A DNA stretch of 63,704 nt. It comes from Gammaproteobacteria bacterium (GTDB lineage Bacteria > Pseudomonadota > Gammaproteobacteria > UBA1113). The position numbers and the translations under genes were made by a program. A model generated the notes under the pieces. The model ran no database searches and was not told the DNA's origin. It was given only the letters and a program-made list of their open reading frames with translations. Of the stretch, positions 8,101 to 61,860 are shown one piece after another. The stretch lies in assembly GCA_021156165.1 (NCBI GenBank), contig JAJNBM010000003.1, positions 67,817 to 131,520 of the forward strand, in the 5' to 3' direction. Each line of letters begins with the position of its first letter. Positions within the stretch are counted from its first letter, which is position 1.

Positions 8101-9509
8101 CCTTCTATGTTTATATACATTTTATGTCTATCAATATGCTCATCCGTTCTATGAAATGTTATGGCAATATCGGTCAACAATGATAAATGATGCCTATAAC
8201 CAAAGTCTTTCATTAAAAGATAGCAATTGTCTTTTAGCTGGTTTAAAGAGTCGGTTAACTCAGTAAAAGACTGAGCCAAGGTATTTCGACTAGCCCGTAT
8301 AAAATGACGTTTTTCTACAAGATTTTTCAGGGTTCTAGGTATGGTTTCATCAAAATTATATAAAGACAAAATAAAATCTTCATGAAAAAACCTAACTAAC
8401 ACAATGTAAATGATAGTTAGAGCCATGCTATTGCTAATCGAATCTGCTATAATAATATCTTTTGTATAATCATCTAAAGAATCACTTCCTATCGCATGAT
8501 TAAGAATTAATCTAGACGCATCGGCTTTATCTATAAATTCGCTGATTTGTTGCTTATATTTTGGTTCAAGCATTTTAACATTGGATATATACGACAAATC
8601 ATCCTGGCTTAATCTATATGGTTTTGATAGGAGAGTAGGTGTAATCGCCATATTGGTCTTATGACCATAAATATCTAGAGCAGTATTGAAAACATTTTCT
8701 TTTACATATTCTTTAAATTTACCAGACTTAAATAAGTTTCTATTTGGATCCTCTAGTATATAAAATCTATCATTTACAAAAATCTTAACGCTAGCCACTG
8801 AATTAACATATCCCTCGCCAAAAGTTAATCCCCGCACTAATTTATCTAAAGTAGCTAAGTCCTCGATTCCATTGACAAGTCCGTAATTCTCTGGGATATG
8901 TCTTAATCCATAGTAAGTTCTGTTTAATATATTTTGTTTGAACGTAGACAATGTCCCTGTATTAATCCTATTTATTGCCTCTTGAAATAAAGTGAGGAGG
9001 CTTTCGCTACATTTTAAATTTAATGATATCGTGGTTTCGTTCTCTTCAATTGGAACCGCAGATTGCAACGCGATATCCCCAGCATCAATCGCAGAGGTTA
9101 TGCAATGCAATGTAACTCCATGCGTTTTTTCGCCATTAATAATCGCCCAGGTGGTACTATTCACACCGGCATAGCGAGGCAGTAAGCTATCATGGTAGTT
9201 CAGTGCCAAAGTTATCTTATTTTGCTGAAAAAAGGATTCGGGAATTACATGCGGATTAGCAATACTAAAAAAATAAAACTTATTGTTATTAATTTCGGCT
9301 AAGCTGGCAAAGGGCAAAACCAAAATTGAATTCTGATTGCACCATTTAACAACAGTTCGATCGTTTGATATAACAGAGACTATTTCCCAACTGTTATCCC
9401 TTAATAGATGCTCTATACATTGGATACATAATTTTGTTTCACCTATTATTAATACTTTCTTTTTAAATAGTAATTCTCTAGAAGTATTCATATTAGCTAA
9501 ATACCACAC
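2193..9509 (-). CDS. Non-ribosomal peptide synthetase, F-(linker)-A-T-C-A-T-TE (N-terminal formyltransferase domain, two modules, terminal thioesterase)
   Basis: 2438-aa ORF. Formyltransferase motifs LALNYHDSLLPRYAG and IDAGDI. A1 motifs LAYTMYTSGTTGSPKGV, FNYYGPTE, GELYIGGIGVARGYLN, YKTGDWVRY, LKIRGFRVEPGEIE, NGKVDR. T1 LGGDS (6263-6249). C domain HHSINDGW (5666-5643). A2 LAYVMYTSGTTGHPKGV..NGKLDK. T2 VGGDS (3116-3101). TE GWSLGG (2714-2695) and a late DHF. Start is uncertain: GTG at 9509 or ATG at 9491. Confidence 0.93.
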   Translation of the reverse strand: MWYLANMNTSRELLFKKKVLIIGETKLCIQCIEHLLRDNSWEIVSVISNDRTVVKWCNQNSILVLPFASLAEINNNKFYFFSIANPHVIPESFFQQNKITLALNYHDSLLPRYAGVNSTTWAIINGEKTHGVTLHCITSAIDAGDIALQSAVPIEENETTISLNLKCSESLLTLFQEAINRINTGTLSTFKQNILNRTYYGLRHIPENYGLVNGIEDLATLDKLVRGLTFGEGYVNSVASVKIFVNDRFYILEDPNRNLFKSGKFKEYVKENVFNTALDIYGHKTNMAITPTLLSKPYRLSQDDLSYISNVKMLEPKYKQQISEFIDKADASRLILNHAIGSDSLDDYTKDIIIADSISNSMALTIIYIVLVRFFHEDFILSLYNFDETIPRTLKNLVEKRHFIRASRNTLAQSFTELTDSLNQLKDNCYLLMKDFGYRHHLSLLTDIAITFHRTDEHIDRHKMYINIEGRALKISGNSVYQLQINSIANCLGVLLDKPIIYEDLSTISLLTDTEYQKIVYGWNKTEMDSPTDKTIHQLFEEQVIKTPNNIAVVYENIKLTYNELNIRANQLAHYLKSTYTIKADDLIALCVDRSEAMIIAILAVLKSGAAYVPLDPDYPMERIRYILEDTRPKLLITNERHAQKMVSFCKEYDLSLDIFMIDNCESQIHLFKKLIMNPQSSTKSNHLAYTMYTSGTTGSPKGVMVEHVSVVNTIFSIRNIYTVVDNSKTTFFCSYVFDVSVAEMMGPLLNGCELHILSNELRKDVSLLSDYLLLNKIQVCYLPPALLSLMKRQEYPDLINVMYAGEPCDKETGLYWSKQKNLFNYYGPTEASIYCLGCKIMNGQIHFIGKPIHNAKAYILDGIGNPVPIGAAGELYIGGIGVARGYLNLPDLTKEKFINNPFQSDEERFAHKNNRLYKTGDWVRYSSDGNVEYIGRDDGQLKIRGFRVEPGEIEAILLLYPNIKQAIVVAKTHETDSYSHNNKYIAAYYVSDIQINEEILLNYLEQRLPNYMVPAALMNLKQLPLTLNGKVDRNALPEPKLKRNVAYSAPRHELDVQLCAIYAEVLSLNSEQISIYDSFFKLGGDSILAIKLANRLKADFNRNITVKNVFEAKNVSNLSDFIAGSKDGLEVPEEYVKFSLINLNKDFLLDDNVEDIYPASYLQAGMLLESELHSEKTTYHNLFCYMVNKPFNESKFREVWNHLTQKHELLRARFVKSTVDGYNAIVKKKLDYIQIIIHRAADIETLVNQERNNPVNCAKTGLFRLIVNNLNEKFSFIFSSHHSINDGWSVTMLINEFAQAYVYDKPIKPLVSSLCYGQFVKHELAIINNTFTIDFWKEYLDEVSAPNIKWNFTNAKSKNALLGASFSLSSEESQGILRLANKNEVSVDSVFLWAYIKTLAFLLNNDDITIGLVVNNRPEQKGGEELFGLFVNTIPFRVKLNEVRDNDSGIQLAFDTKVKIRPYKHMPYGHIKSMLGHDLYSFVFNFTNFDVLQQRSDAIVKLEEYVKTNIPFVLSVNRQNGNDFKLEISVSDEYVDSDYLEYFVKYLKISLQDIIYSRNKMRLDEVDFNKLIYTFDNPRLDCNRDKTIQQLFEEQVEKTPHRIAIVYENIKLTYEELNAKANQLANYLRNIHPIHPEDLIALCVDRTETMVIAILAVLKSGAAYVPIDPAYPLERIHYILKDTKTKLLIANEHHVQRISPFFKEWNLSLEVVRIDNSKLQACLSQESIASPELGAKSYHLAYVMYTSGTTGHPKGVAIEHRGVLNTVFAIKNIYTAIPNSKVGFFCAYVFDVSVSEMMATLLNGCELHILSNELRKDANLLSDYLLSHKIQVCYLPPAILSLIKRQAYPDLINLIYAGEPCDKETALYWSAQKNLFNYYGPTETSIYCSGCKIIDGQVHLIGKPIQNTKAYILDDVGRLLPIGAVGELYIGGIGVARGYLNLPELTQNKFIKNPFQTKEEKEKNINDRLYKTGDLVRYRPDLNLEYMGRNDSQVKIRGFRVEIAEIEAVLYSYPQVKQAVVLAVDEGQSNKYFIGYYVADYKLDESTLFRYLNERLPEYMIPTILVYLSSLPLTTNGKLDKSALLKMELRALAHYVAPVTKCEKQICSIITRVLGKKTVTDVGKNDSFFMVGGDSLSAIKLLNEINIYFDVQLKIADIFKAKTVEKIADLVSHFNPKFEPITKFSVVHNNKPDLFIVHSAFSGIEIYAPLADKLSSRFNCYGIENYNLYHEEKMTDLNQLALYYLYEIDEVRAMTKQSEQPYLLLGWSLGGQIALEMASILERKGCQSIKLILLDPALTDNQLSYYYGDMLKIDNALFRQFLESQDYEENLINKIITNISSDIQLARQTTDTPLLYSEAILFKAMQYGTRKYFNNYKFQSDYVLELYYNNIDKIIDASNIELVKMQADHFTLLDQVDILYKNIVSWYSSSKLLKEIV

Positions 9510-9698
9510 TAATAAACATATTACCTACCTTAAACATTATAATTTATTATACTAACTATGATATGCCTTTATCCTAGAACATTTAACTACCATAATAATA
9601 TAAGCGTTAGTAGATAATAATAGCACGATTTACTGCTAATATTCAACTTAATCAGCAGAAACGTGAAGTCTGTCTCGAGCGGGGGTTGGATATAAGCA

Positions 9699-10529
9699 TT
9701 AAAATGGATCTGCTAACTCTTCTGCTGCGGACTCATCCATAACCTCATCCAGCACCAATCCTTTTTCTAATTCTTTAAACGGCCAGAGATCTTTATCCAT
9801 TAACTGACTAGGCCGGATATTCCCTAAAGCACTCAAAGCATTGCTAGGCACTTTAGGATTTTCAGTTGTTAAAGTTTTCATTAACGCCGCTATTTTTTTA
9901 CGCGTTAGTTTTTCTTGTGAACCACATAAGGTGCAAGGAATGATAGGGAAATTTTGTTCGCCCGCATAAGTAATAATATCTTTTTCTTGGCAATAGACCA
10001 TAGGGCGAATTAAGATGTGGCGTTTATCATCGGTTAACAGTTTAGGCGGCATAGAACGAATTTCGCCACTGTACAGTATAGACATTAACAAGGTATTCAC
10101 TAAATCGTCGCGGTGATGTCCTAAAGCAATTTTAGTAAATCCGTTTTCTTTGGCATAAGTGTAAATATTGCCACGGCGTAAGCGCGAGCACAAAGAACAA
10201 TACGTTTTGCCTTCTGGTATTTTTTCTTTGACTATAGAATAGGTATCGCGACGCAATACTTCATAGGAAATACGGCGCTGCTCCATCCATGCCCGCAAAC
10301 CGCTGTCATCCCAACCCGGTTGCGCTTGATCCAAGGTAAAAGAAAACAATTCAAAACGATTATTTGAATTGATGCGGAGTTGTTCCAACAGACACAATAA
10401 AGTAAAAGAATCTTTTCCGCCGGATAAACACACCATAACGCGATCACCTTTTTGGATCATGTTGTAATCGCTGATTGCCTTACCTGTATAATGTAATAAT
10501 TTTTTTTCAATTTTGCTATTTGTAAACAT
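9699..10529 (-). CDS. ttcA: tRNA 2-thiocytidine(32) synthetase TtcA
   Basis: PP-loop [16 protein letters not shown] cysteine motif, and a second CTLCGS cluster. Size (276 aa) is typical. Confidence 0.85.
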
Positions 10530-29203: not shown

Positions 29204-29290
29204 GCCGGAGTGGCGAAATTGGTAGACGCGCCGGACTCAAAATCCGGTGGTGGCAACACCGTGTCGGTTCGAGTCCGACCCCCGGCACCA
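29204..29290 (+). tRNA. tRNA-Leu (anticodon CAA)
   Basis: GCCGGAGTGGCGAAATTGGTAGACGCGCCGGACTCAAAATCCGG + long variable arm + GTCGGTTCGAGTCCGAC + CCCCGGCACCA. One A-C mismatch in the acceptor stem; CCA is encoded. Confidence 0.9.
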
Positions 29291-29293
29291 TCT

Positions 29294-29608
29294 CTACTTA
29301 AAAAATACTTTCGCACTTGCTGAAAGTTGTGACCAGTAGGGAATAATGATAAATACCACGCCCAAAATAAAATAAATAATGGGTTTAGAAAGTGTGACCT
29401 GGATAGGATTTTTGCGATGATCCATGTATTGCATCACTGCTCCCATCAAAAAAGCGATACCCGCAATCATACTGATGGCAATTAACATTTTTTGAACCCC
29501 TGTTAAAGGCCCTAGAGCTGCGTGCGAAACATCCCCGAGGGAAGGAGCTGCTTGGGTAATAACCCCATAAAAAGTAAGTGCTAAATAAGTGATTATTTTT
29601 TTATACAT
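29294..29608 (-). CDS. Small secreted/membrane protein (signal peptide plus two TM helices)
   Basis: MYKKIITYLALTFYGVITQAAP.. then MLIAISMIAGIAFLMGAVM and IIYFILGVVFIIIPYW. The track ORF start (29668) overlaps tRNA-His, so the internal ATG at 29608 is preferred. Confidence 0.5.
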   Translation of the reverse strand: MYKKIITYLALTFYGVITQAAPSLGDVSHAALGPLTGVQKMLIAISMIAGIAFLMGAVMQYMDHRKNPIQVTLSKPIIYFILGVVFIIIPYWSQLSASAKVFFK

Positions 29609-29635
29609 GGCTTTTTTATTTAATAATACTAAAGT

Positions 29636-29712
29636 TGGGGTGAACGATGGGGCTCGAACCCACGACAACCGGAATCACAATCCGGGGCTCTACCAACTGA
29701 GCTACGTCCACC
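29636..29712 (-). tRNA. tRNA-His (anticodon GTG)
   Basis: Reverse complement GGTGGACGTAGCTCAGTTGGTAGAGCCCCGGATTGTGATTCCGG..GTGGGTTCGAGCCCCATCGTTCACCCCA. The extra 5' G(-1) typical of tRNA-His is present. Confidence 0.92.
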
Positions 29713-29713
29713 A

Positions 29714-29845
29714 TGGCGCTTTTTGCATTTGACTTTTAGGCTTTGTTAACTTCGCCCCTTTCACAAAAATCATGTATCAGTGCATACACTTCTTTTGCTC
29801 GAAGGCGCCTTGCCTCGCCTAAAACCCACCTGCTATGAGCTCTTC
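29714..29845. repeat. Family-2 MITE-like element (spacer between tRNA-Arg and tRNA-His), most diverged copy
   Basis: ..TTTTGCATTTGACTTTTAGGCTTTGTT..CATGTATCAGTGCATACAC..CGCCTAAAACCCACCTGCTATGAGCTC. Confidence 0.8.
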
Positions 29846-29848
29846 TTT

Positions 29849-29925
29849 TGGTGCGCCCGGCAGGATTCGAACCTGCTACCCTCGGCTTAGAAGGCCGATG
29901 CTCTATCCGAATGAGCTACGGGCGC
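29849..29925 (-). tRNA. tRNA-Arg (anticodon TCT)
   Basis: Reverse complement GCGCCCGTAGCTCATTCGGATAGAGCATCGGCCTTCTAAGCCGAGGGTAGCAGGTTCGAATCCTGCCGGGCGCACCA. Confidence 0.92.
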
Positions 29926-29938
29926 TTTAAAACCTAGT

Positions 29939-30064
29939 TATAGTCTTCGCATTTGGTTTAGGCTTTGTTGGCTGCGTCCATCTCTCCAAAGTCATGTATC
30001 AGTGCATACACTCCTTTGGCTCGAGGACTTGCCACCTCGCCTAAAAATCAACTGCTATGACATA
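29939..30064. repeat. Family-2 MITE-like element (spacer between tRNA-Pro and tRNA-Arg)
   Basis: TATAGTCTTCGCATTTGGTTTAGGC...GCCTAAAAATCAACTGCTATGACATAT. Confidence 0.85.
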
Positions 30065-30088
30065 TATGCGCTAACCGCAAAAAATTGA

Positions 30089-30162
30089 TCGGGGTAGAGG
30101 GATTTGAACCCCCGACATCCTGCTCCCAAAGCAGGCGCGCTACCAGACTGCGCTATACCCCG
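30089..30162 (-). tRNA. tRNA-Pro (anticodon TGG)
   Basis: Reverse complement CGGGGTATAGCGCAGTCTGGTAGCGCGCCTGCTTTGGGAGCAGGATGTCGGGGGTTCAAATCCCTCTACCCCGA. CCA is not encoded. Confidence 0.9.
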
Positions 30163-32258: not shown

Positions 32259-32813
32259 ATGCGAACAGTAGATAACTTATATACCGACATACTTACACAA
32301 ATTGGCGAAGATCCCAACCGCGAAGGTTTAATCAAAACTCCGGCCCGTGCTGCACGCGCTTTAAAATTTTTAACAGCAGGTTACGAGCAAAGCGTAGAAG
32401 AAGTCGTTAATGAGGCTTTATTTACCTCCGACATCGACGAAATGGTGGTGTTAAAAAATATTGAAATTTATTCCTTATGCGAACATCATCTCTTGCCTTT
32501 TGTAGGCCAATGCCATATTGCTTATCTACCTAAAGGTAAAGTCTTGGGCATTTCCAAAATTGCCCGTTTAGTAGAAGTTTTCGCCAGACGATTACAAATT
32601 CAAGAAAACCTCACCAAGCAAATTGCAGATACTTTATTGGAGGTTACTGGTGCTCTCGGTGTAGGCGTGTTAATCGAAGCACAGCATTTTTGCATGATGA
32701 TGCGCGGCATACAAAAGCAAAACTCTGTCTTAAGCACTTCCGTCATGTTAGGCGAGTTTCGGAATAATCCGCAAACGCGTCATGAATTTTTGAGTTTGGT
32801 AACGAACAAATAA
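32259..32813 (+). CDS. folE: GTP cyclohydrolase I (type 1)
   Basis: [26 protein letters not shown] motifs; 184 aa. Confidence 0.93.
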
Positions 32814-33004
32814 TAACGGGACGTTTGTTATTATTCTAATAATATATTAGTTTCCAAGCTTGGTTCCTATGATATTATTAAAAAAACATTTAAAAGTGAT
32901 TTATTTTTGTTCGCAACTTCTTCAAGTATAAAATTGAGTGCTTACCGCATTCATTCTACATATTGCACCCTACTGTTTTAAAAATACGTCCCCTAAAATA
33001 TAGG

Positions 33005-33033
33005 TTGATATAATGTATCTTTTAGGCTAGACT
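33005..33033 (+). promoter_or_regulatory. Candidate promoter of the heme-oxygenase-like gene
   Basis: TTGATA, 17-nt spacer, TAGACT; 34 nt before the ATG at 33067, which has AGGAGA upstream. Confidence 0.35.
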
Positions 33034-33066
33034 CACTATCACAGAATGCCTAGACAGGAGAAAAGA

Positions 33067-33822
33067 ATGAAATCATTAATATTGCTAGTCAATACTATTA
33101 AATCACACCAATCGGTTAATAATCAATTCTATGACATCTGGATGAATGAAGAATTATCTGCGCAAGGAATAAGTATATTTGCTAGAAATTATTGGGAGTG
33201 GGCTTACCAATTTCCAATCATATTGGCGGGGCTTATTGCTCGCACGGAAAATATTGCTGCCCGCACAGAATATACAAAGACACTTTTTTCAGAGATGGGC
33301 GATGGCGATGTTAACCGTGTACATTCTACTTTATTTGAAGTGTTTCATGACTGTTTAACAACACAAATGGGGAATCCACAACAAACCTTGGCGAAAATAA
33401 AGCACATAACGCCACTGCTTAATGGAACACAAAAATTAATTAGTTGGCAAAAAGAAGTTTATTCTACAAATCCCGCCGTAGCCGTGGGTGCACAACTTGC
33501 TTTAGAATGGCAAGCCTACACAATGCTTAGTAAGTTATATGAAGGGGCGCGAAATTATATGCACTTATGGAAAAATATGGATGATTTTCATGGGGCATGC
33601 GAATTTTTTTATGCGCACATCGGTGCAGCTGAGAAGGAGCATAAAAAAGAATCTATCAATGCAGCAGAAAGACTTATTCATGAAGGCGCTCCTTTTGCTG
33701 ATATAGAGTTAGGTTTTAATAAAAATTTAGAATTAATCGCTAATTTCTGGGCTGATATTGCCAATGAAGTACGGCCAACAGCCGTTAAGAAAGGCTCTAC
33801 CAGTGAATTAGCTTACTTGTAA
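33067..33822 (+). CDS. Heme-oxygenase-like di-iron (CADD/PqqC/TenA-type, iron-containing redox enzyme) family protein
   Basis: Helical protein with NQFYDIWMNEELS..ARNYWEWAYQFP, TLFSEMGDGDVNRVHSTLFEVF, LALEWQAY and FFYAHIGAAEKEHKKE. This parallels the CADD pattern (FYVKW..; DEENGYPNHIDLW; YSYESQ; EHEEADVRH). The preferred start MKSLILL has a good SD. Confidence 0.65.
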   Translation: MKSLILLVNTIKSHQSVNNQFYDIWMNEELSAQGISIFARNYWEWAYQFPIILAGLIARTENIAARTEYTKTLFSEMGDGDVNRVHSTLFEVFHDCLTTQMGNPQQTLAKIKHITPLLNGTQKLISWQKEVYSTNPAVAVGAQLALEWQAYTMLSKLYEGARNYMHLWKNMDDFHGACEFFYAHIGAAEKEHKKESINAAERLIHEGAPFADIELGFNKNLELIANFWADIANEVRPTAVKKGSTSELAYL

Positions 33823-35210
33823 CTCGTGTTTATTCTCATAAAGGGTATAAGGGCAAAAAGTAACATCGCCACACCTAGGATAGCACTTGCTATCACTAGA
33901 AAGAAAATTTCGAAGTGACTTTCGTTTTGATAAGATATTTGCGCTGTTATTTTGGCAATTAGCCCCGATAAATAGCCCGAAAAAGATAAGAGAAAATAGA
34001 AAATACCCATGAAGAAGTTCCTTTGTCTTACTGGTGCATATTCACTAATTAATGAAATAGAAACTGGAATGATAGATAATTCACCTATAGATAGAAAAAA
34101 ATTTGCGAATAGTATACTCAATATAGCCGCGTGACTCTCGAGAAGATTAATTTTAACACTGACAGCAAACAACATAAAAGCTATAGCCGTCGCAGATAGT
34201 CCAACAGCAATTTTAACATGGGATATTTCTGCGCCATATTTACCCCCCAGCCCCAGCCATTGCCAGACATAAGTAATAGGCGCTGCAACAATAAAAACAG
34301 AAATAGCCTCTATTGAGCTAAACCAAGTCACGGGCAATTTAAATCCAAAAAAAGTCGTATTCACATTTTCATTAATAAAGATGGTCACAGATGAAAAAAC
34401 TTGTAATAAGGCTATGAAAAATAAAATGCTGGCTATCAGTGGAATCCATAGATTTCCTACATTCCTTCTTTCTACAGCCGAATAACCAGCAAATAACTTA
34501 TATAAGTAACCTATAAGAAATAGCGCCGCGGGAGCAAAAATATAAAAAATAGAGACTATTTTAGCTACAACCAAATAGATAATAATCATATAAGGCAGTA
34601 TTAAAGCGGCAGCCGCTCCAACTCTTTTTTCTCCCCTACGCTTAACGATTCTATGTTGCGTGCTATGCAGCATAACCATATTGAGGATTAAAATAAGCGC
34701 GCTCATCCCAAAACCTATCCAATATTTTTGTAAGGAGATACCAATGCCATAAAAAATAGGCCCTAAAATACTACCTATATTCCCTAGAGTATAAAAATAA
34801 ACAAAAAGTTTATTGTTTTTAGACATTTTATTGTGCAAAATACCTACGAGTGTAGAGGTAGCTGGTTTCATTAAACCAATAGCTACAATAATAAGGGTCA
34901 TACCAGCAAAAAATAGATTCATTTTTACAGCATAAATAATAATCAGGTTGCCCATAAACATACAAGTCGTTCCTAAAAAAACAGACTGGTATGGTGCAAG
35001 AAACTTATCGGCAATCATACCCCCTAAAATACAGCTTGCAAAAGTCAATGCCACATATTGGCCATAAACTGTATAACTAAAAGCCGTGCTAACATTAAAA
35101 TGTGCAATCAAATATAGAACTAATAAGGACTGTAATCCATAGTAGTTTAATCTATCACAAAACTCTGAGAAAGAAATTTTTAGAAAGTGAGCCTTTAATG
35201 TTGGCGCCAT
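33813..35210 (-). CDS. POT/PTR2-family (proton-dependent oligopeptide) MFS transporter
   Basis: N-terminal FSEFCDRLNYYGLQSLLVLYL matches the POT ExxERFxYYG signature region; about 12-14 TM segments. ATG at 35210 has AAGGA upstream and lies 4 nt after the stop of the preceding gene. Confidence 0.7.
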   Translation of the reverse strand: MAPTLKAHFLKISFSEFCDRLNYYGLQSLLVLYLIAHFNVSTAFSYTVYGQYVALTFASCILGGMIADKFLAPYQSVFLGTTCMFMGNLIIIYAVKMNLFFAGMTLIIVAIGLMKPATSTLVGILHNKMSKNNKLFVYFYTLGNIGSILGPIFYGIGISLQKYWIGFGMSALILILNMVMLHSTQHRIVKRRGEKRVGAAAALILPYMIIIYLVVAKIVSIFYIFAPAALFLIGYLYKLFAGYSAVERRNVGNLWIPLIASILFFIALLQVFSSVTIFINENVNTTFFGFKLPVTWFSSIEAISVFIVAAPITYVWQWLGLGGKYGAEISHVKIAVGLSATAIAFMLFAVSVKINLLESHAAILSILFANFFLSIGELSIIPVSISLISEYAPVRQRNFFMGIFYFLLSFSGYLSGLIAKITAQISYQNESHFEIFFLVIASAILGVAMLLFALIPFMRINTSYK

Positions 35211-35214
35211 ACTT

Positions 35215-36531
35215 TTAATCCTTACTCTTTTTAGCAATGGCTATGCAACCATTAATAAAAGATGAAAATTCAGGGAAAACACGATCTTCAAAGGAAGCTA
35301 GTATTTTCTGTAAAACAGGATCGTACTCAGCCAAGTGGGTAATCGATAAAATTTCATTATGGGGGTCTTTTTCACTATGGTAAAACTGATAACTCAAGTC
35401 TTTTGCCAATGCAAATAAGGGCGTCTTTTCAACCATTAATGTACCATGAACTATTTCGGAGATAACCGTGTCTAAAATATGCTTTAATTCACGGATATCC
35501 ACCATTTTACTCAAAGCGCGACTGGAACGCGGTGAAAAAACTGTAGTGGTTGGCATGGTTAAAGAATAATAAACGGGGCGATCTTCAGCGCTAGAGAAAT
35601 GGTGTAAATGCATAATGATGGGCGCATATTTTCTTAATTTGTAATCATCCAAGTAAACCTTCTGTAGCCCATCTATAGGCGCTGCAATATTATCTATTGC
35701 TGGTGTAAATCCGGGCATTCCACCCGCCCCTATTCCAAAAAGATGTTTTACTGTATCAGCCAAATAAGGATTCGGTTTCAGATTTCCACTTTTTTGTGCC
35801 AAGGAAAATGCAAAATCAAAAATAAATTGGTTCCGCTTAAAGGTAGAATCTGCCCACGCTTGGTTTAAGATAAGTTCATTGAATCTAGACCAATCGCGAT
35901 CGCCCTTATGTTGAAACCATTCCTTTGAGAAAAAAGCCAATTCAGAATGCCACTTTTGTGTAAAATCTTTATGATTAGCAATTCGTGTAAAAATAGCCCA
36001 ATGGTCATTCAAGGAGGTGGGAGCTGGCAGCCGTAGGTTGTACTTTCGCCTTAATAGTTCATGTCCAGTGTTTTCTGTAATTTTAGGTAACATGCAAATA
36101 GTCCTTGCACCGGAAGATATGCTCCATAATGCCCCCTCTTGATAAGAACAATCTCCTTCTAATACTCGCCACAGTGATACCATACCCCCAGAGGTATAAA
36201 AAGATGAAGGGATAGTACGATTATCGGTGGTAAAAAATGTTTCTATGGAATTTTGTAATACTATAGCCATCGGAATTGTACCAGTATATCCTAAATCTGT
36301 TTTTACTTTTGAATCGATTGTAATATCATTTAGCGGCACTAGAACATTTTTGCTATTAAATACTTGGAATATTCCGGCATTCAGGATAAGTACACCATAA
36401 GGATATTGGCCCAAGTATAAAGTGTGATCTCTAGGGGGCGACAGCTCGTCAATAATTTCACAGAAGTAAGGTTGCACTAATTTGATTTTATCGCGCAACT
36501 CTGCCCAAGAATATTCTTTCAACCCACCCAT
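35215..36531 (-). CDS. Hypothetical protein, 438 aa, no motif recognised
   Basis: Long ORF with GGGAGA SD 7 nt upstream, coupled to the flanking genes. Soluble-looking; notable strings are GIGAGGMPGFTPAIDN and IIMHLHHFSSAEDRPVYYS. Confidence 0.6.
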   Translation of the reverse strand: MGGLKEYSWAELRDKIKLVQPYFCEIIDELSPPRDHTLYLGQYPYGVLILNAGIFQVFNSKNVLVPLNDITIDSKVKTDLGYTGTIPMAIVLQNSIETFFTTDNRTIPSSFYTSGGMVSLWRVLEGDCSYQEGALWSISSGARTICMLPKITENTGHELLRRKYNLRLPAPTSLNDHWAIFTRIANHKDFTQKWHSELAFFSKEWFQHKGDRDWSRFNELILNQAWADSTFKRNQFIFDFAFSLAQKSGNLKPNPYLADTVKHLFGIGAGGMPGFTPAIDNIAAPIDGLQKVYLDDYKLRKYAPIIMHLHHFSSAEDRPVYYSLTMPTTTVFSPRSSRALSKMVDIRELKHILDTVISEIVHGTLMVEKTPLFALAKDLSYQFYHSEKDPHNEILSITHLAEYDPVLQKILASFEDRVFPEFSSFINGCIAIAKKSKD

Positions 36532-36559
36532 ATCACATCTCCCGTTTATGTTGACTACT

Positions 36560-37774
36560 CTAGTAATAACGCCTCTTAAAATATATTACTGGTATTATTT
36601 TATAAAAGCTATAAAATGGGCTAAATAAAATATCATCAGCCCCTAGAACTAGACAATTCACAAAATTTTTGGCCAAAAAAGAACCGATCATAGCATATTC
36701 TGCTGCTTGACTCTTCGCAATAGGAACGTAATGTTCTGCCGATATATCTTTTTCATTATACCAACGACTGTATAAAGCTTTTCTACGCTTAGCTATGTCC
36801 AGAAAAACACCATTGCTTATTTTCGGTTTTCCAAAATAGTCCTTATCAAATTCTGCATGAATATCTTTGGTCTGTTGTAGCCATAATTTTTCACCACCAC
36901 AGAGATCTGCGCACATAAATGTCTCAATTGGTATGACTTGGTTGCTTTCTTCCTGAAAAGCCAGGCGGCTGAGATTAACTCTATATAAGAATTGTTCTTT
37001 AGACAAACCCACTCGTTTCACAGTCTTTTCTGAAAAGGCTTCATAATCTGCAATAGTTGTAATAATAGTTGTTTTTACTTGTATTCTTTCTAAAAACACC
37101 TTAAGGCTGGGTAGTATATTGATAATACGCTTAGCGATTTGTCCAATCTCACAACCCAGACTTGTAAAAGTATGTTTATAGGGGCGTTTCACGTCGAAAG
37201 TTGGCTCCACCGCATAATCAGGGCAAGTATGGATAAATATAGTTGATGGCATATTTGCACGGGCATTATTAATCCAATTAACAATTTGATGCATGCCTTC
37301 TTCGCTAGGCATAATAACGTCTGCATCATGCAAAAAATTTTCTAGAGCATTCCTTACATCACTCTGCAAAGTGCGCGTACAGCCATATTGTAGCCGGGAT
37401 TGGTTAGTACAGATCTGCACCCTATCCAGTAGCAATGACATGAGTGACGGCTGTAAATTATCAATCAGTGGCAATTTGAAATTTACTTTTATTTTATTGT
37501 CATTATAACTCTTTATTTTCCAGCTAATTTGTGGCATTTTATCTGCCAAAATTGTGTAAAAAATAAAGTGCCTAGGTAATGGCTGTTTAGCATGAACTAT
37601 TTCTCGCTTTGCCTCATACAATCTGCGTAAATTTTTTATCTTCTTCAGCGTAATATTATAAATAGACAATAACTTTTCATCGTATCGATCGTTTATTATG
37701 CCATCTAATAGCTTCCGGGAAACCGCACTAGGAATAAGAGCACCATTCTGTAAGACACCGTAAAAATTTTTCAT
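36560..37774 (-). CDS. Hypothetical protein, 404 aa, no motif recognised
   Basis: Long ORF with AAGGAG SD 6 nt upstream. Notable strings are IFIHTCPDYAVEP, TTIADYEAF and CLVLGADDILF. Confidence 0.6.
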   Translation of the reverse strand: MKNFYGVLQNGALIPSAVSRKLLDGIINDRYDEKLLSIYNITLKKIKNLRRLYEAKREIVHAKQPLPRHFIFYTILADKMPQISWKIKSYNDNKIKVNFKLPLIDNLQPSLMSLLLDRVQICTNQSRLQYGCTRTLQSDVRNALENFLHDADVIMPSEEGMHQIVNWINNARANMPSTIFIHTCPDYAVEPTFDVKRPYKHTFTSLGCEIGQIAKRIINILPSLKVFLERIQVKTTIITTIADYEAFSEKTVKRVGLSKEQFLYRVNLSRLAFQEESNQVIPIETFMCADLCGGEKLWLQQTKDIHAEFDKDYFGKPKISNGVFLDIAKRRKALYSRWYNEKDISAEHYVPIAKSQAAEYAMIGSFLAKNFVNCLVLGADDILFSPFYSFYKIIPVIYFKRRYY

Positions 37775-37931
37775 ACTACTCCTTCTGTCTCAATATACCT
37801 ATCATAAAGTAAAATTGTCTTATTGTCCAAATTAAAAGATAAAAATATTTACACCCTATTTGTCCCCCGTCCCAATTGACAGGGGTAGGGTTGCCGGGCA
37901 GGGCAAAAACTGTGGGGTTTCAATCTAATGG

Positions 37932-38147
37932 TTAGACATCATCATTTGCATCTTTATCCATTTCACTACTAGAATTTAACTTCTTTTCGTTCTGAATACG
38001 CAGATAAATTTCAGAGCGGTGTACACTTACATCTTTTGGCGCTTCAATGCCTAGACGAACTTGACCACCTTTAATATCTAATACGGTAATGTGGATATCA
38101 TCACCAATGATCAGAGTTTCTCCAAAATAGCGGGTTAAAACTAGCAT
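37932..38147 (-). CDS. CsrA-family RNA-binding regulator paralogue with acidic C-terminal tail
   Basis: [55 protein letters not shown] aligns along its length with canonical CsrA. R7 is replaced by Tyr, and there is an extra tail [24 protein letters not shown] is present. Confidence 0.85.
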
Positions 38148-38210
38148 CTTCTTATCTCCTATATTTTATTTCAATTTAAATAATACGCGTATAAATTTCC
38201 ACATGCTTTT

Positions 38211-38441
38211 CTACTCTATCAGGTCCTTGTTCTTTATGTATAAAAACAAATAGACAAGTTCATCACCCCCTACGCATTGTCGAATTGTTTCCCAGTTTAC
38301 TTTTTTAGGATGGCTGATCATTAATACCAAAGATTCCAAGATCTCAACTTGTTTTTGACTAGCATCTATACCCATGCGTTCTAGAATTGAAACCGCGGTA
38401 TAGTTTGTTAAAGAAAGTTCTTCTATTAGATCTATGTGCAT
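38211..38441 (-). CDS. Small acidic hypothetical protein (76 aa) directly upstream of the csrA-like gene
   Basis: ORF only; net acidic and helical-looking. Its position matches the small lvrB-type ORF that precedes csrA-like lvrC/csrT genes in Legionella mobile elements. That parallel is from recollection, not from sequence identity. Confidence 0.4.
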   Translation of the reverse strand: MHIDLIEELSLTNYTAVSILERMGIDASQKQVEILESLVLMISHPKKVNWETIRQCVGGDELVYLFLYIKNKDLIE

Positions 38442-38916
38442 CTCTTAAATCTCCTTGTTAGTTAATTGCACTGAGGACTACCCAGCATTCCTTACCTTCG
38501 CTACCACTGATCTTTGAATTCTTATTTTTTTGTACGCAAATGTTCATTTCCATGTATCTAACTGAAAAAACATTGCGTAAAGTAACTCATATAGGATGGC
38601 CTGGTTTTCAAAAAATTGCTATTACTAAATTGATCTTAGAATTTCGATAGGTTAATTCTGGCAGCACAGTGATGTAAGTTGTTCAAACAAAACACTATTT
38701 TGAGGAAATATTGCTGAATCTTTATGGCCATATAATACTTATAATAATATTCAGTTTTAATTTAGCAGCATCCGTGACCGATGGACTTTTCGCTTATCCT
38801 TTAAGCTAATCAATCTTTTCTAAAAGATACAAGTCCTTCTGTAGCCTGTTCACCCTGAATACGCATCCTTATGCTCTATTTCTTCCATGGATGAGTTTGG
38901 TCACGAGCTAAAGAGT

Positions 38917-39333
38917 CTATGATGCCCCGGCTCCTCGTTGCGCGCGCAGGGATCTTGGAACCCATCGGTCCACTATGCCTATAGGCGGAAGTATATTAAT
39001 AGCCTTTAATAAAATAGAACCGTTCTCTCCAACGCTGAGTGAAAATGTGGCTGTTCCATTTTTAGATGCGGCTTCAATATTTCCTTGTTGAGTAGAGAAT
39101 ACGGTGCCTGGGTCGGCACTAATATCTTCCAGAACAGTAAGTTCTATATTACTAAGAACTGTACCTGCATCTCTAAATCTATTCATTGCCTCACATAAAG
39201 CCACTGCGTGTTCAGCAGGATTTTTCCTAATTTCTAATATCTTATTATCCGCTACTTGATTATTTGCGAGTTGGCTATCTGACTTCATAAATTCAACCGA
39301 TCGCTTTTGCGGCTGATCTGGGGGAAAAAACAT
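38917..39333 (-). CDS. Hypothetical protein, 138 aa
   Basis: ORF only; no recognisable motif. The AT-rich body has a GC-rich 3' end (RSLRAQRGAGAS). Confidence 0.35.
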   Translation of the reverse strand: MFFPPDQPQKRSVEFMKSDSQLANNQVADNKILEIRKNPAEHAVALCEAMNRFRDAGTVLSNIELTVLEDISADPGTVFSTQQGNIEAASKNGTATFSLSVGENGSILLKAINILPPIGIVDRWVPRSLRAQRGAGAS

Positions 39334-39571
39334 TTTTGCACCTTTCTATTAAAAATAAAATTTATTTTAAAAAAAGCCTTATAAGAAGTCAACATCGGAT
39401 TCAGTTAACAGCGCCCCAAGTTCAGCTGCCATTCTAAATAAAAATGGACATAAAAGCGTTATTATATTATCATAGTACGTAATATAACGTTATTATTAAC
39501 TTTTCCAATACCACCTTTGGGCTATAAAAATGCCAAATAAAAGAGCCTATTGATCACTCTTACAAATAGCT

Positions 39572-39622
39572 GCGTAGGCTCATGTGGTTCTCATTAGGGC
39601 AGGCCAAGAGCCTGCCCTTAAC
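39572..39622. repeat. Degenerate REP copy upstream of mutS
   Basis: GCGTAGGCTCATGTGGTTCTCATTAGGGCAGGCCAAGAGCCTGCCCTTAACC. The second hairpin is intact; the first has decayed. Confidence 0.5.
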
Positions 39623-43007: not shown

Positions 43008-44021
43008 TCAACTTTTTTTACATATGTAATTTTTTTCTTTTTCTATTTGTTCATCCACAGTTTCTTCTTCCATTCGCTCATCATCAATAGCATTATCTAC
43101 ATGTATAGCAGCCTTATCAATCACCTTAAAAAATCTAGCACGTCCCCCAGCAACATAATCTCCAATATGAGCGATAAGCTCTATTGGCAATGTCGATAAT
43201 CTGCTTCCCTGATCTTTGAAGCTTTCGCCCATAGTAATGAGCTGTTCATCTTCTCTTGCTATAAAATTATCTAACCACTCGTCATCCTTTCCATCACGTT
43301 TTTTCAAAATAAAAGTTCTAAAAGCTTCATTTTCTGCATCTTTTATATTATCATCAGCGCCATGTACGTAGATTAATACCCACGCCATGCTGGCCAATAC
43401 GTCATCTTTATCTGAATTTGAGTTTGAATTTCTATTATTAAGCTCTGAATAATTTTGAGATCTATAGGTACAGTGTTGGCTCGATAGAAATTTTGTTAAA
43501 TGCAAAGGTGTGTTACCCTGAGCATCTTTTATATTTACATCTGCCCCCAAAGCGGACAAAATGAATAAAATTTTCTTGCCTAACTCCTTATTATCTATCC
43601 AGGGATAATTTAGAGCCTCGCGAAAAGCAATACGCTCATCTTTCCCTGCTGCTTTATGCATAATCATCTGGTGTTGGAAATAAAAGTAATTTTCTCGATA
43701 TGCTTGAACATCAAAAAGATAATAGTTAAATGCTTTAGAATATTTGATAGCAAAATGGATAGGCGCATCACCATCGCTATTTTTTTGATTTATCAATTTA
43801 GTTGTTGCAGAAATACCCCATGTGTCTATGTAAAACAGAATAATACTGGGCATATCATAAAGAATCGACAAATGCAGTATATTATTGCCTCTTGCATCCG
43901 TCGAAAGATTATTGGACCATACACCATCTATTACTTGCCTATAATTTTTTTCTTTAAAAGCCGCTATAATACTTTCTGAAATTTCTTTTGTTATCATATT
44001 TATTACCTTCAAATGATACAT
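43008..44021 (-). CDS. Ankyrin-repeat protein with C-terminal F-box-like motif (eukaryotic-like, probable secreted effector)
   Basis: ANK-like units GNNILHLSILYDMPSIILFYI, DGDAPIHFAIKY, GADVNIKDAQGNTPLHL, HGADDNIKD. F-box-like LSTLPIELIAHIGDYV (about 43202-43152). Glu-rich tail ERMEEETVDEQIEKEK. An alternative start ATG at 43997 has a better SD. Confidence 0.7.
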   Translation of the reverse strand: MYHLKVINMITKEISESIIAAFKEKNYRQVIDGVWSNNLSTDARGNNILHLSILYDMPSIILFYIDTWGISATTKLINQKNSDGDAPIHFAIKYSKAFNYYLFDVQAYRENYFYFQHQMIMHKAAGKDERIAFREALNYPWIDNKELGKKILFILSALGADVNIKDAQGNTPLHLTKFLSSQHCTYRSQNYSELNNRNSNSNSDKDDVLASMAWVLIYVHGADDNIKDAENEAFRTFILKKRDGKDDEWLDNFIAREDEQLITMGESFKDQGSRLSTLPIELIAHIGDYVAGGRARFFKVIDKAAIHVDNAIDDERMEEETVDEQIEKEKNYICKKS

Positions 44022-59805: not shown

Positions 59806-60438
59806 CTAACTTCTAAACGGCACTACGCCTAAACAAGGTGCATGAATCCATTGCTTTAAGGTTTCGATATTTCCGCTACTAGCCAGTGTGTCTTGTTCTA
59901 TACAATTGGCCACCCAACCCAATAACGGCACTTTCATCTGTACTATATTATGATACGTTAAAATCGCGTGATTCAAACAGCCTAACTTAATTGCCACTAC
60001 TAGAATAGTAGGTATATTCAACTGCAAAATCGCTTCAGAAAAAAGCTCTGTTTCATTTAAAGGTACGCTCCAACCACCTACGCCTTCTATAATATTGATA
60101 TCGGCTTCAGCTTGCACATGAGCAGTAATCGTTTCTGTTAATAAAGCAACCGATAATTTTTTCCCCATTAATTTTGCTGCCAGATGCGGCGCAATAGGCT
60201 CTTTTAAAGCAATAGGATTAATCGCGGGATAAGGTTTAAATATGGAAGCAGCCGCTTGCAAAGCCAATGCGTCTTCATTGACGAAATGATTATTTTCATC
60301 CATTGTGCAACCAGAGGCTATAGGTTTCATAGCAAATGTTTTATAACCTAGTTGTTTTAGTTTCTTCAATAATAAGCAACTTATCGTTGTTTTTCCTACA
60401 GCAGTATCCGTGCCCGTTATAAAGATGCTTTTTGGCAT
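59806..60438 (-). CDS. bioD: Dethiobiotin synthase
   Basis: MPKSIFITGTDTAVGKT P-loop. The track start 60480 overlaps bioC further; ATG at 60438 is preferred. Confidence 0.9.
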   Translation of the reverse strand: MPKSIFITGTDTAVGKTTISCLLLKKLKQLGYKTFAMKPIASGCTMDENNHFVNEDALALQAAASIFKPYPAINPIALKEPIAPHLAAKLMGKKLSVALLTETITAHVQAEADINIIEGVGGWSVPLNETELFSEAILQLNIPTILVVAIKLGCLNHAILTYHNIVQMKVPLLGWVANCIEQDTLASSGNIETLKQWIHAPCLGVVPFRS

Positions 60439-61175
60439 AAATAAATTCCTATACAATAAGTTAGCTGCGGCAGAATACACTCTTCTACAAATACTTCCCG
60501 TACATTTATTTTTTTCAAGCCCCTATTATCATGACGCAACCCGGGCGAGAAATTAGCACCTAATGCTTGCAAAGATTTTAAGGCCTGATAATGGGATTGA
60601 AATGATTGAATATGTTTGTAGCTATAATGATCAACTATTTTAAAGCCACTCTTATTTAAAACGCGAATGATATCTGCAGGCGAAAATAATACAGATTTAA
60701 ATTGCGCTCTTATTTCAGGAAAGTTTCCTGAAACCGGAACAGAAAAAACAAAATATCCACTTTTTGTTAAATAACGATTCAATAATATGAGTGTCTTCTC
60801 TAAAGCCAAAGACCATTGCAGTCCCATATTGCAGAAAACAAGATCTAAAAAATCATCAGGAAAAAGTTTCTCATCAAAATCAGACAAGATACAGTTCACA
60901 GGAAAGAGTAATTTATTTTGGGCAATACTTAATAGCTTATCTGAAAAATCGACAGCATAGCATTTTTCGTGACGTATCTGCTTTATGAGTTTTAAGGTGC
61001 TCTCACCTGTGCCACAAGCAAAATCCGCTATCACTTCAAAATAAGATGAATGCGGCATTAACAATTCAAGCGCACGCTGACTGGCATTATTTTGCACGGT
61101 GCAATATGCGTCATAGGTTTTATATGCCTTATTGAAATGATGTTTTATTTTGCTTTTGGTGATATTATCAGGCAT
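60417..61175 (-). CDS. bioC: Malonyl-ACP O-methyltransferase
   Basis: SAM-binding motif ADFACGTGE; located between bioH and bioD. Confidence 0.8.
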   Translation of the reverse strand: MPDNITKSKIKHHFNKAYKTYDAYCTVQNNASQRALELLMPHSSYFEVIADFACGTGESTLKLIKQIRHEKCYAVDFSDKLLSIAQNKLLFPVNCILSDFDEKLFPDDFLDLVFCNMGLQWSLALEKTLILLNRYLTKSGYFVFSVPVSGNFPEIRAQFKSVLFSPADIIRVLNKSGFKIVDHYSYKHIQSFQSHYQALKSLQALGANFSPGLRHDNRGLKKINVREVFVEECILPQLTYCIGIYLCQKASL

Positions 61176-61860
61176 CTATAAATTCATCCATAACAGAACG
61201 ATACAACTTCGCATGGGTTAAAAAACCACCATGACCTGCCTCAGCTATATGCACAACTGTAATATTGCTATTCGTTTTTCGTAAACATTGCTCATTTTGC
61301 TTTAAAACGGCATCTTTGCCCCCAATAATATGGAGTATTTCTTTCCTTAAATGGCTATACTCATCTCGCAAATCCGCAGAAAAAAACTTCGATAAGTCTT
61401 TTAATTGCCCTGAAAAATTATCTAAAAAATAAGTATTTAAGCTATTTCTATATAGAAAATTTTTATTTGGAAAGTTAACCTCGGAAATGAATTTTTTCTT
61501 AAGCTGAGAAAAGTCTTGACAAGCGCTTTTTATAAATACTTGTATTGTCTTGGGATCAATACCACTATGCCCTATCTCGGCTAGCAATTTAGGCTGGCTC
61601 GCCAGCAATATGAGTTTTTTCACCTTATCGGGAAACAAACTCGCTATTTTAATTGCAAATAAGCCTCCTAAAGACCAAGCGACTATAGTGCCAGGCTTCG
61701 TGATAGCGTTTGATAATTGCAGAGCAATGTCTTCTATAGACATATCGCTATAATTAAAATAATTCATTCCAAAACAGGTATTATCTGCCAACGCTCCATG
61801 GTTGAAAATGTCGGCAGAAAATCCCCAACCTGGAATGGTATAAATAAGTTCATCTTTCAT
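61168..61860 (-). CDS. bioH: Pimeloyl-ACP methyl ester carboxylesterase (alpha/beta hydrolase)
   Basis: Nucleophile elbow VAWSLGG and a late His (EAGHGGF); located in the bio operon. Confidence 0.75.
   Translation of the reverse strand: MKDELIYTIPGWGFSADIFNHGALADNTCFGMNYFNYSDMSIEDIALQLSNAITKPGTIVAWSLGGLFAIKIASLFPDKVKKLILLASQPKLLAEIGHSGIDPKTIQVFIKSACQDFSQLKKKFISEVNFPNKNFLYRNSLNTYFLDNFSGQLKDLSKFFSADLRDEYSHLRKEILHIIGGKDAVLKQNEQCLRKTNSNITVVHIAEAGHGGFLTHAKLYRSVMDEFIDA

Follow-up and report, generated by a model that had tools for sequence, protein, structure and literature searches.

A mobile four-gene module with a putative role in the metabolism of small modified amino acids or peptides in Legionella-like bacteria

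What two large proteins devoid of any nameable motif might do beside a peptide transporter is the question raised by a cluster of three minus-strand genes in a 63,704-nucleotide stretch of a Gammaproteobacteria bacterium genome (assembly GCA_021156165.1, contig JAJNBM010000003.1, positions 67,817 to 131,520), hereafter the window. An earlier annotation made from the DNA letters alone (the sequence-only reading) had described an orphan operon encoding two proteins, here called g1 and g2, and a transporter of the POT family. It had this operon converge on a gene for a heme-oxygenase-like di-iron oxidase/oxygenase (HDO), and it favored a role in small-molecule or peptide metabolism over the production of secreted effectors. 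Literature searches on this gene combination, and on IsnA structures, brought up nothing of direct relevance. Here, we report that HDO, g1, g2 and POT form a mobile module that recurs in other genomes, and we propose that this module most likely makes or handles an uncharacterised small modified amino acid or peptide.

The HDO-g1-g2-POT module

The start sites and Shine-Dalgarno sequences of the three minus-strand open reading frames (ORFs) were checked using the ORF list and the reverse-strand sequence. The features of the locus are as follows:

37774..36560, minus strand: g1, 404 amino acids, GAAGGAG located 7 nt 5' of the ATG
36531..35215, minus strand: g2, 438 amino acids, GGGAGA 5' of the start
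35210..33813, minus strand: POT transporter, 465 amino acids from the ATG at 35210, TAAGGA 5' of the start
33046..33822, plus strand: HDO, 258 amino acids, convergent here with g1-g2-POT
37801..37829, minus strand: candidate sigma-70-like promoter for g1-g2-POT, TGGACA-17-TATGAT, 10 of 12 positions
32814..39600: low-G+C variable region carrying the module, between folE and mutS

The Shine-Dalgarno sites, the gaps of 28 nt between g1 and g2 and of 4 nt between g2 and POT, and the 10-nt overlap between the POT stop and the 3' end of HDO are all as the sequence-only reading had given them. The mechanically called ORF of POT is longer, starting with a TTG at 35237 (474 amino acids). The AT-rich island is equally apparent, with a G+C content of 0.364 over positions 33046-38441 against 0.43 and 0.42 on either side; gene by gene, values range from 0.35 to 0.38 within the low-G+C region, compared with 0.41 for folE and 0.43 for mutS. 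The 3' limit of the promoter lies 27 nt before the ATG of g1, and it is given as a candidate since sigma-70-like sites are no more frequent in the region than in shuffled sequence.

To place these genes in a wider frame, we fetched 57 genomic loci that surround relatives of g2, and additional contigs for those of g1 (cited below by their L numbers). The four-gene set is present, whole or in part, in at least nine contigs besides the window, the carriers being uncultured Legionella-like bacteria. The host of the window is an uncultured gammaproteobacterium whose MutS shares at most 56% identity with any species representative; its best matches are unclassified gammaproteobacterial MAGs, among them the one carrying L004. 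It is complete in L001, L004, L062, L063, L147 and L148 and partial in L005, L066 and L149. The usual layout is HDO, g1, g2 and POT in that order and in one direction throughout (L004, L062, L147, L148); L001 is arranged as in the window, and L063 has the order g2, POT, PolF-type HDO and g1. The HDO gene, which the sequence-only reading had left outside the operon, is the immediate 5' neighbor of g1, in the same orientation, in L004, L005, L060, L062, L147 and L148; the two genes overlap by 4 nt in L005 and are separated by 2 nt in L062 and L148 and by 1 nt in L060. POT adjoins g2 in eight loci of the window type (L001, L004, L062, L063, L065, L147, L148, L149), and the two genes, 4 nt apart in the window, overlap in L001, L063 and L148. 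When the window is compared with L001, L004 and L005, the only genes in common are HDO, g1, g2 and POT, amid unrelated flanks, which indicates that the module is mobile. Because the four genes recur together and mostly in the same direction while their flanks differ, HDO is a member of the module and not a mere neighbor. The tight gaps and the joint recurrence also support the proposal that g1, g2 and POT form a single functional unit. Absence of their co-occurrence outside this genome, which would have refuted the sequence-only reading, is contradicted by these contigs.

The module also exists as separate halves. HDO and g1 occur without g2 in L060/L061, while g1 is accompanied by a 2-oxoglutarate (2OG) oxygenase, an HDO and a LysE exporter in L064, and by a membrane desaturase-like protein, a 2OG oxygenase, LysE and a class IV aminotransferase in L058 (Pseudomonas sp. 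6D_7.1_Bac1). Conversely, g2 and POT are found without g1 in eight loci (L002, L006, L007, L009, L010, L014, L027, L044). In L058, the gene after the g1 homologue (9193-10473) encodes a 426-amino-acid membrane protein with fatty-acid-desaturase-type His boxes, making this a distinct g1-centred cluster; that protein was considered as a g2 relative and rejected, as it is not homologous and has membrane-desaturase His boxes instead.

Families and predicted folds of the four proteins

The label "orphan" describes neither g1 nor g2. The g1 family is small and uncharacterised, with homologues in 28 clusters beyond its own entry, and the g2 family is large, with 114 homologue clusters in a word-indexed search and at least 1573 representatives at 50% identity in an exhaustive profile search (E<=1e-3). 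All named homologues of both proteins are annotated as "hypothetical protein". Neither g1 nor g2 matches a Pfam or NCBIfam family; at E<=10, no family was hit in more than one of the 27 g1 members, and no consistent family emerged among 67 g2 members. Profiles of the two families gave no match to PDB sequences.

The AlphaFold (AF2) model of g1 (pLDDT 90.7) consists of a family-specific N-terminal domain (about residues 1-170) and a Rossmann domain of about 230-250 residues (about 175-404) resembling class-I aminoacyl-tRNA synthetases (aaRS) and cyclodipeptide synthases (CDPS). The best Foldseek match in the PDB was the CDPS 6ztu (E 1e-4, probability 1.0), accompanied by many other CDPSs, including 6y4b, 3oqh, 5ocd and 6ez3 (CDPS probabilities 0.9-1.0, TMt about 0.5). 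Further matches were TyrRS (6bqy_A, TMt 0.62), TrpRS, MetRS, MshC (3c8z) and the isonitrile synthase PIsnA with L-Tyr (9dh4_B, E 2.4e-3, TMq 0.35), whose 16% identity was the highest in the list. All of them cover the C-terminal ~250 residues of g1. In the predicted structure, this domain has a class-I aaRS-type Rossmann fold, an assignment made at the level of the fold and not of membership in any characterised family. The absence of nameable motifs or profile matches in g1 stands, whereas with this match the protein can no longer be said to lack a recognisable fold.

As for the features of class-I aaRSs, g1 has no HIGH motif (the region reads CPDY...SLGxGIGQ), no KMSKS (the protein ends with YFKRRYY where KMSKS would start) and no C-terminal anticodon-binding domain. 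CDPSs are class-Ic aaRS-like enzymes that make a diketopiperazine from two aminoacyl-tRNAs, and their catalytic serine (S37 in AlbC) follows the first strand and is accompanied by Y178/E182/Y202. Like the CDPSs AlbC, Rv2275 and YvmC, g1 is devoid of HIGH and KMSKS. It may also resemble them in its active-site layout, with a potential nucleophile immediately behind the first Rossmann strand and, ahead of the fourth, a conserved helix that bears E and Y. Its invariant residues fall at strand ends and in one helix (C184-P-D-Y187, D243/E245, R331, Q356/E359/Y360, D380, Y398, Y403), with Cys184 right after strand 177-183, Q356/E359/Y360 in the helix and D380 after the next strand. In contrast to CDPSs, g1 has a Cys at the putative position of the Ser, a 20-residue beta-hairpin insertion, an extra 170-residue N-terminal domain and no sequence or profile similarity to them. 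Its partners are also different, being HDO and a transporter, with no cyclodipeptide oxidase or P450 seen, while typical CDPS clusters pair with one or the other.

The model of g2 (pLDDT 93.8, pTM 0.92) comprises an N-terminal jelly-roll barrel similar to cyclic-nucleotide (cNMP)-binding domains (about residues 38-147) and a C-terminal alpha/beta region without structural match. Foldseek searches of PDB and BFVD returned nothing at E<=1e-3; the top PDB match, CRP/Vfr, is weak and restricted to the barrel (E 2.6e-3, TMq 0.24), and the BFVD matches were again weak and to CRP-like barrels. The absence of nameable motifs and profile matches in g2 also stands, and of the phosphate-binding cassette of cNMP-binding domains neither a His nor an Arg-Ser/Thr-Ala version is present at the expected spacing. 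The strongest conservation is found in the remaining ~290 residues, with NLKPNPYLADTVKHL as the top motif, a YYS323 motif and H385...D389, S323 and H385 being among the invariant residues. Because the conservation peaks there, outside the barrel, and includes invariant polar residues, this pattern suggests an active site.

The other two proteins belong to known families. HDO matches Pfam PF14518 (45.8 bits, cut-off 28.9) and retains all six metal-ligand positions in alignment A3 (E83, H93, E154, H191, E196, H199), i.e. the three His and three carboxylate ligands of the family; of these, E83 is conserved within the window-type clade, and the other five are invariant. Its nearest characterised relatives are CADD/CT610, with a TIGR04305 (CADD) match of E 2.3e-12 that at 47 bits is under the cut-off of 200, and a PDB sequence match (8va9/1rcw) of E 0.07 over residues 18-87 only. 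The transporter scores above the cut-offs of both PTR2 (83.7 bits, cut-off 27, E 1.6e-23) and TIGR00924 (147.9 bits, cut-off 130.2), in agreement with its earlier assignment to the POT family. It keeps the sequence E-F-C-D-R-L-N-Y-Y-G (EFCDRLNYY), which is the ExxERFxYY proton-coupling motif except that the second acid is conservatively changed from E to D.

Gene contexts of g2 and proposed function

Clustering of the ORFs neighboring g2, combined with Pfam annotation, revealed four recurrent contexts. Context A is that of the window (HDO, g1, g2 and POT). In context B, POT and g2 are joined by another type of HDO and by an ATP-grasp L-amino-acid ligase (L007, L010, L044), with a variant holding two ATP-grasp ligases and an alanine-dehydrogenase-like gene (L017, L043). 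In context C, represented by about 28 loci and found among others in the cultured species Legionella anisa, L. longbeachae and L. bozemanae, g2 adjoins a major facilitator superfamily (MFS) transporter and a borosin-type N-methyltransferase (TP_methylase). An ORF of 60-70 amino acids lies 5' of the methyltransferase in 23 of these loci (L022-L055; for example L034, 11329-11517, minus strand); with their conserved "LLEQLA" N-terminal leader and short C-terminal cores such as ADRTTIFDL and ANESHVFQI, these ORFs probably encode precursor peptides. Context C corresponds to the Legionellales split-borosin clusters, whose N-methyltransferase has no borosin-binding domain ("BBD-less"), as noted in two preprints (bioRxiv 10.1101/2021.12.24.474128, 10.1101/2024.01.09.574750), whose passages retrieved by keyword mention no g2-like protein. 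Finally, context D associates POT and g2 with a ThiS-like carrier, a ThiF-rhodanese protein, YcaO and TfuA (L014, L027, and partially L006, where the ThiS-like ORF is at the contig end). Right after g2, L014 (9396-9560) and L006 (9352-9486) have an ORF of 44-54 amino acids sharing the motif PYSM(N/T)K(V/I)TLIP, a candidate precursor of a thioamide RiPP (ribosomally synthesised and post-translationally modified peptide).

Each of the four contexts thus combines a peptide-forming or peptide-modifying system with a peptide-type transporter. A peptide or MFS transporter accompanies g2 in nearly every case, and the gene is a hallmark of Legionellales peptide clusters; these contexts agree with the earlier preference for small-molecule or peptide metabolism over secreted effectors. 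A RiPP (borosin or thioamide) or PEARL-like scaffold was considered for the window cluster itself and rejected, as it has neither a precursor nor a class-defining enzyme. The island contains no TP_methylase or YcaO gene, a precursor hidden Markov model built from the 23 context C loci has no match in the window, and the small ORFs flanking context A clusters share no mutual homology and include no conserved precursor-like ORF. The window cluster differs in the same two respects, methyltransferase and precursor peptide, from the split-borosin clusters.

From these observations, we infer a scheme in which the locus would be a mobile biosynthetic module of two sub-modules for a small oxidised amino-acid or short-peptide metabolite, a reading that we put at about even odds (probability around 0.5). 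In the first sub-module, HDO would oxidise an amino acid or an aminoacyl or peptidyl intermediate, an oxidative amino-acid chemistry of the kind that characterised HDOs perform, and g1 would move an activated aminoacyl group to an amine acceptor, forming an amide bond. Its donor would most likely be aminoacyl-tRNA, perhaps via an acyl-enzyme on the invariant Cys184. In doing so, g1 would take the job of the ATP-grasp L-amino-acid ligase found beside the same kind of HDO in related clusters. In the second sub-module, g2 would perform a common peptide-handling step (maturation, cleavage or scaffold formation), and POT would carry the product, or a peptide from which it derives, through the inner membrane.

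The ligase role of g1 is proposed because HDOs of one subfamily (43% identity, E 1e-69) adjoin a g1-like gene in L064 and an ATP-grasp LAL_C2 ligase in L007, and because HDO and L-amino-acid-ligase pairs have a precedent: at least 25 types of such clusters lead to short modified peptides, for example mangotoxin (PMC13185094). The window locus resembles the mboABCDEF type of mangotoxin cluster (PMC13185094) in its compact operon, which combines an HDO for an amino-acid or peptide substrate with an enzyme that forms amides and with a transporter, as far as the roles proposed here are right, and the sibling clusters L007, L010 and L044 contain exactly HDO and ligase, as in the mangotoxin type. 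It differs in having the aaRS/CDPS-fold g1 in place of an ATP-grasp ligase and no dedicated reductase or deiminase, and in its additional g2 and POT-family transporter. Reuse of a Rossmann core for amide formation outside translation, as proposed for g1, is exemplified by SbzA (PMC12945691) and MshC (3c8z). However, SbzA has preserved the architecture of a canonical IleRS, with its domains for editing and tRNA binding (PMC12945691), while g1 has no signature motifs, no anticodon-binding domain and no detectable sequence homology to it.

Several points weigh against this scheme. No product, activity or experimental data exist for the g1 or g2 family, and the link between g1 and CDPSs or aaRSs comes from predicted structure only, with TM-scores of 0.3-0.6. 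Alignments by hhalign of the g1 profile A1 with four CDPS sequences (probability 0.15%; the AlbC query was confirmed against PDB) and with E. coli TyrRS (an approximate query sequence) are not significant, and are nonetheless in the register predicted by the fold match. The equivalence of Cys184 with the catalytic Ser of CDPSs is suggested by strand position and spacing, the spacing in that non-significant register fitting S37 of AlbC provided that the 20-residue hairpin is counted as an insertion; moreover, TyrRS presumably has a non-nucleophilic Cys near a comparable place. Window-type and ATP-grasp-type HDOs are only 16-19% identical, so that the displacement argument is direct only for the L064/L007 pair. 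In the methyltransferase clusters, g2 is on the opposite strand and its link to them is conserved adjacency alone. Lastly, characterised POT members are, to our knowledge, all proton-coupled importers, and with the coupling motif retained, uptake fits this transporter better than export.

This last point favors a reading in which an intracellular bacterium uses the module for nutrition or salvage and not for secondary metabolism: POT would import a di- or tripeptide from the host or environment, g2 would cleave or convert it in the cytoplasm, and HDO and g1 would transform the freed amino acid. The g2-POT pairing is the most persistent of all and occurs without a biosynthetic partner in L002; the hosts are Legionellales-like, an ankyrin-repeat protein is encoded in the window, and Legionellales-like bacteria depend on host amino acids. 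Yet the partners of the g2 family are anabolic (amino-acid ligases, N-methyltransferase with precursor, YcaO-TfuA with precursor), g2 has no recognisable peptidase fold or motif, and the g1-oxygenase sub-module is paired elsewhere, in clusters containing g1 only, with LysE-family exporters, suggesting that the product leaves the cell. We thus consider a purely salvage role unlikely. The fold of g1 also recalls IsnA/PvcA-like isonitrile synthases, which turn an amino acid into an isonitrile at its alpha-amino group. HDO could then act as oxidative decarboxylase or desaturase in the role of IsnB/PvcB, and the product would be an isonitrile metabolite. As in IsnA-IsnB and PvcA-PvcB, an enzyme of aaRS-like fold stands beside a non-heme iron oxygenase whose proposed substrate is an amino acid: PIsnA is among the top Foldseek matches, g1 always adjoins an oxygenase, and a 2OG-Fe(II) oxygenase gene directly follows g1 in L064 and lies two genes downstream in L058, as in isnA-isnB. 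This reading is quite improbable, given that Pfam DIT1_PvcA (PF05141) matches none of the 27 g1 members even at E<=10, that TyrRS and CDPS score equally well or better in Foldseek, and that the oxygenases belong to a different family, those of L064 and L058 being PF13640 and not of the TauD type, which we take to be that of IsnB/PvcB.

Two further proposals concern single members of the module. With CADD/CT610 as the closest characterised relatives of HDO and the island abutting folE in the window (folE is also ~8 kb from the cluster in L066), HDO might be a CADD-like self-sacrificing synthase of p-aminobenzoate (pABA), with g1, g2 and POT handling pABA-glutamate-like compounds. We regard this as extremely unlikely: the TIGR04305 score is far under its cut-off, no folate genes occur among the Pfam-annotated genes near the module in L062, L147 and L148, the window folE has no BLASTP match in L004 or L005, and the conserved N-terminal F-Y motif of HDO is presumably generic for the superfamily. 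As the only structural likeness of g2 is to CRP/FNR-family cNMP-binding regulators, g2 could instead be a ligand-binding regulator or immunity protein whose barrel senses or sequesters the peptide product or controls the transporter. We give very little weight to this possibility, in view of the weak matches (E>1e-3), the lack of any Pfam cNMP_binding or helix-turn-helix match in the 67 members, the strong conservation of ~290 further residues, whose invariant polar positions are of the kind seen in active sites, and the translational coupling of g2 within an enzyme-transporter operon.

By the features tested, the locus does not belong to the CDPS, aaRS, IsnA, CADD or RiPP families, and relative to the clusters of HDO and amino-acid ligase it is new in having an aaRS-fold family in place of the ligase, a g2 of unassigned fold and a POT, with two undescribed protein families. 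A broader view of the biosynthetic scheme, possible if rather doubtful, would make g1 a new family of aaRS-fold amide synthases (tRNA-dependent or otherwise non-canonical, using a Cys acyl-enzyme and paired with a di-iron oxidase), and g2 a new enzyme fold at the common core of an unrecognised class of small-peptide natural-product pathways in Legionellales and related intracellular bacteria, including the Legionella "BBD-less borosin" and YcaO-TfuA clusters. Two unannotated families, both with confidently predicted folds, would acquire a role open to testing; one of them, that of g2, comprises well over 1000 sequence clusters. If g1 forms amide bonds, the short list of natural-product enzymes derived from aaRSs would grow by one more branch. 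As a genomic marker, g2 connects no fewer than four kinds of gene sets for peptide modification in Legionella, Coxiellaceae and their uncultured relatives, bacteria in which secondary metabolism is still little explored. The g2 protein may also supply the maturation step still missing from the borosin-like clusters of Legionellales. With only four genes, the module is compact enough for heterologous expression.

Surroundings of the module

Two small genes upstream of g1 complete the low-G+C block:

37932..38147, minus strand: CsrA-family paralogue, 71 amino acids, directly upstream of g1 and associated with the module
38211..38441, minus strand: conserved acidic protein, 76 amino acids, paired with the CsrA paralogue

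CsrA homologues are found no more than a few kb from g2 in at least nine loci, namely the window, L001, L003, L005, L011, L012, L020, L048 and L066, and ORFs 41-42% identical to the 76-amino-acid protein adjoin CsrA in L001 and L066. The latter protein matches neither Pfam nor the precursor-peptide profile, and its candidacy as a precursor peptide was rejected, as it is a conserved partner of CsrA instead. The CsrA paralogues may serve as a dedicated post-transcriptional regulator or be the mark of a mobile element.

At the borders of the island, no tRNA or integrase gene was found. An imperfect 20-nt direct repeat (17/20; 32791-32810, the last 20 nt of folE, and 38892-38911, ~6.1 kb apart) encloses most of the low-G+C block, reminiscent of an att-site duplication, yet a region this large is expected to contain repeats of such quality by chance. 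A cluster of four tRNA genes (Leu, His, Arg, Pro) occupies 29204-30162, ~3 kb from the island. The ORF at 38917-39333 (minus strand, 138 amino acids) matches no family, is without homologues in the loci fetched, and may not be a real gene.

Farther away, the ankyrin-repeat protein mentioned above is encoded at 43008-44021 (minus strand) in a low-G+C patch; such proteins are expected among the eukaryote-interacting effectors of intracellular bacteria. At 59806-61860, three genes encoding AAA_26/CbiA, methyltransferase and alpha/beta-hydrolase domains could form a biotin set, bioD/bioC/bioH. Another low-G+C stretch holds a second secondary-metabolite locus of the window, a nonribosomal peptide synthetase gene (2193-9509, minus strand) whose 2438-amino-acid product has two modules with the domains Formyl_trans_N, A, T, C, A, T and TE.

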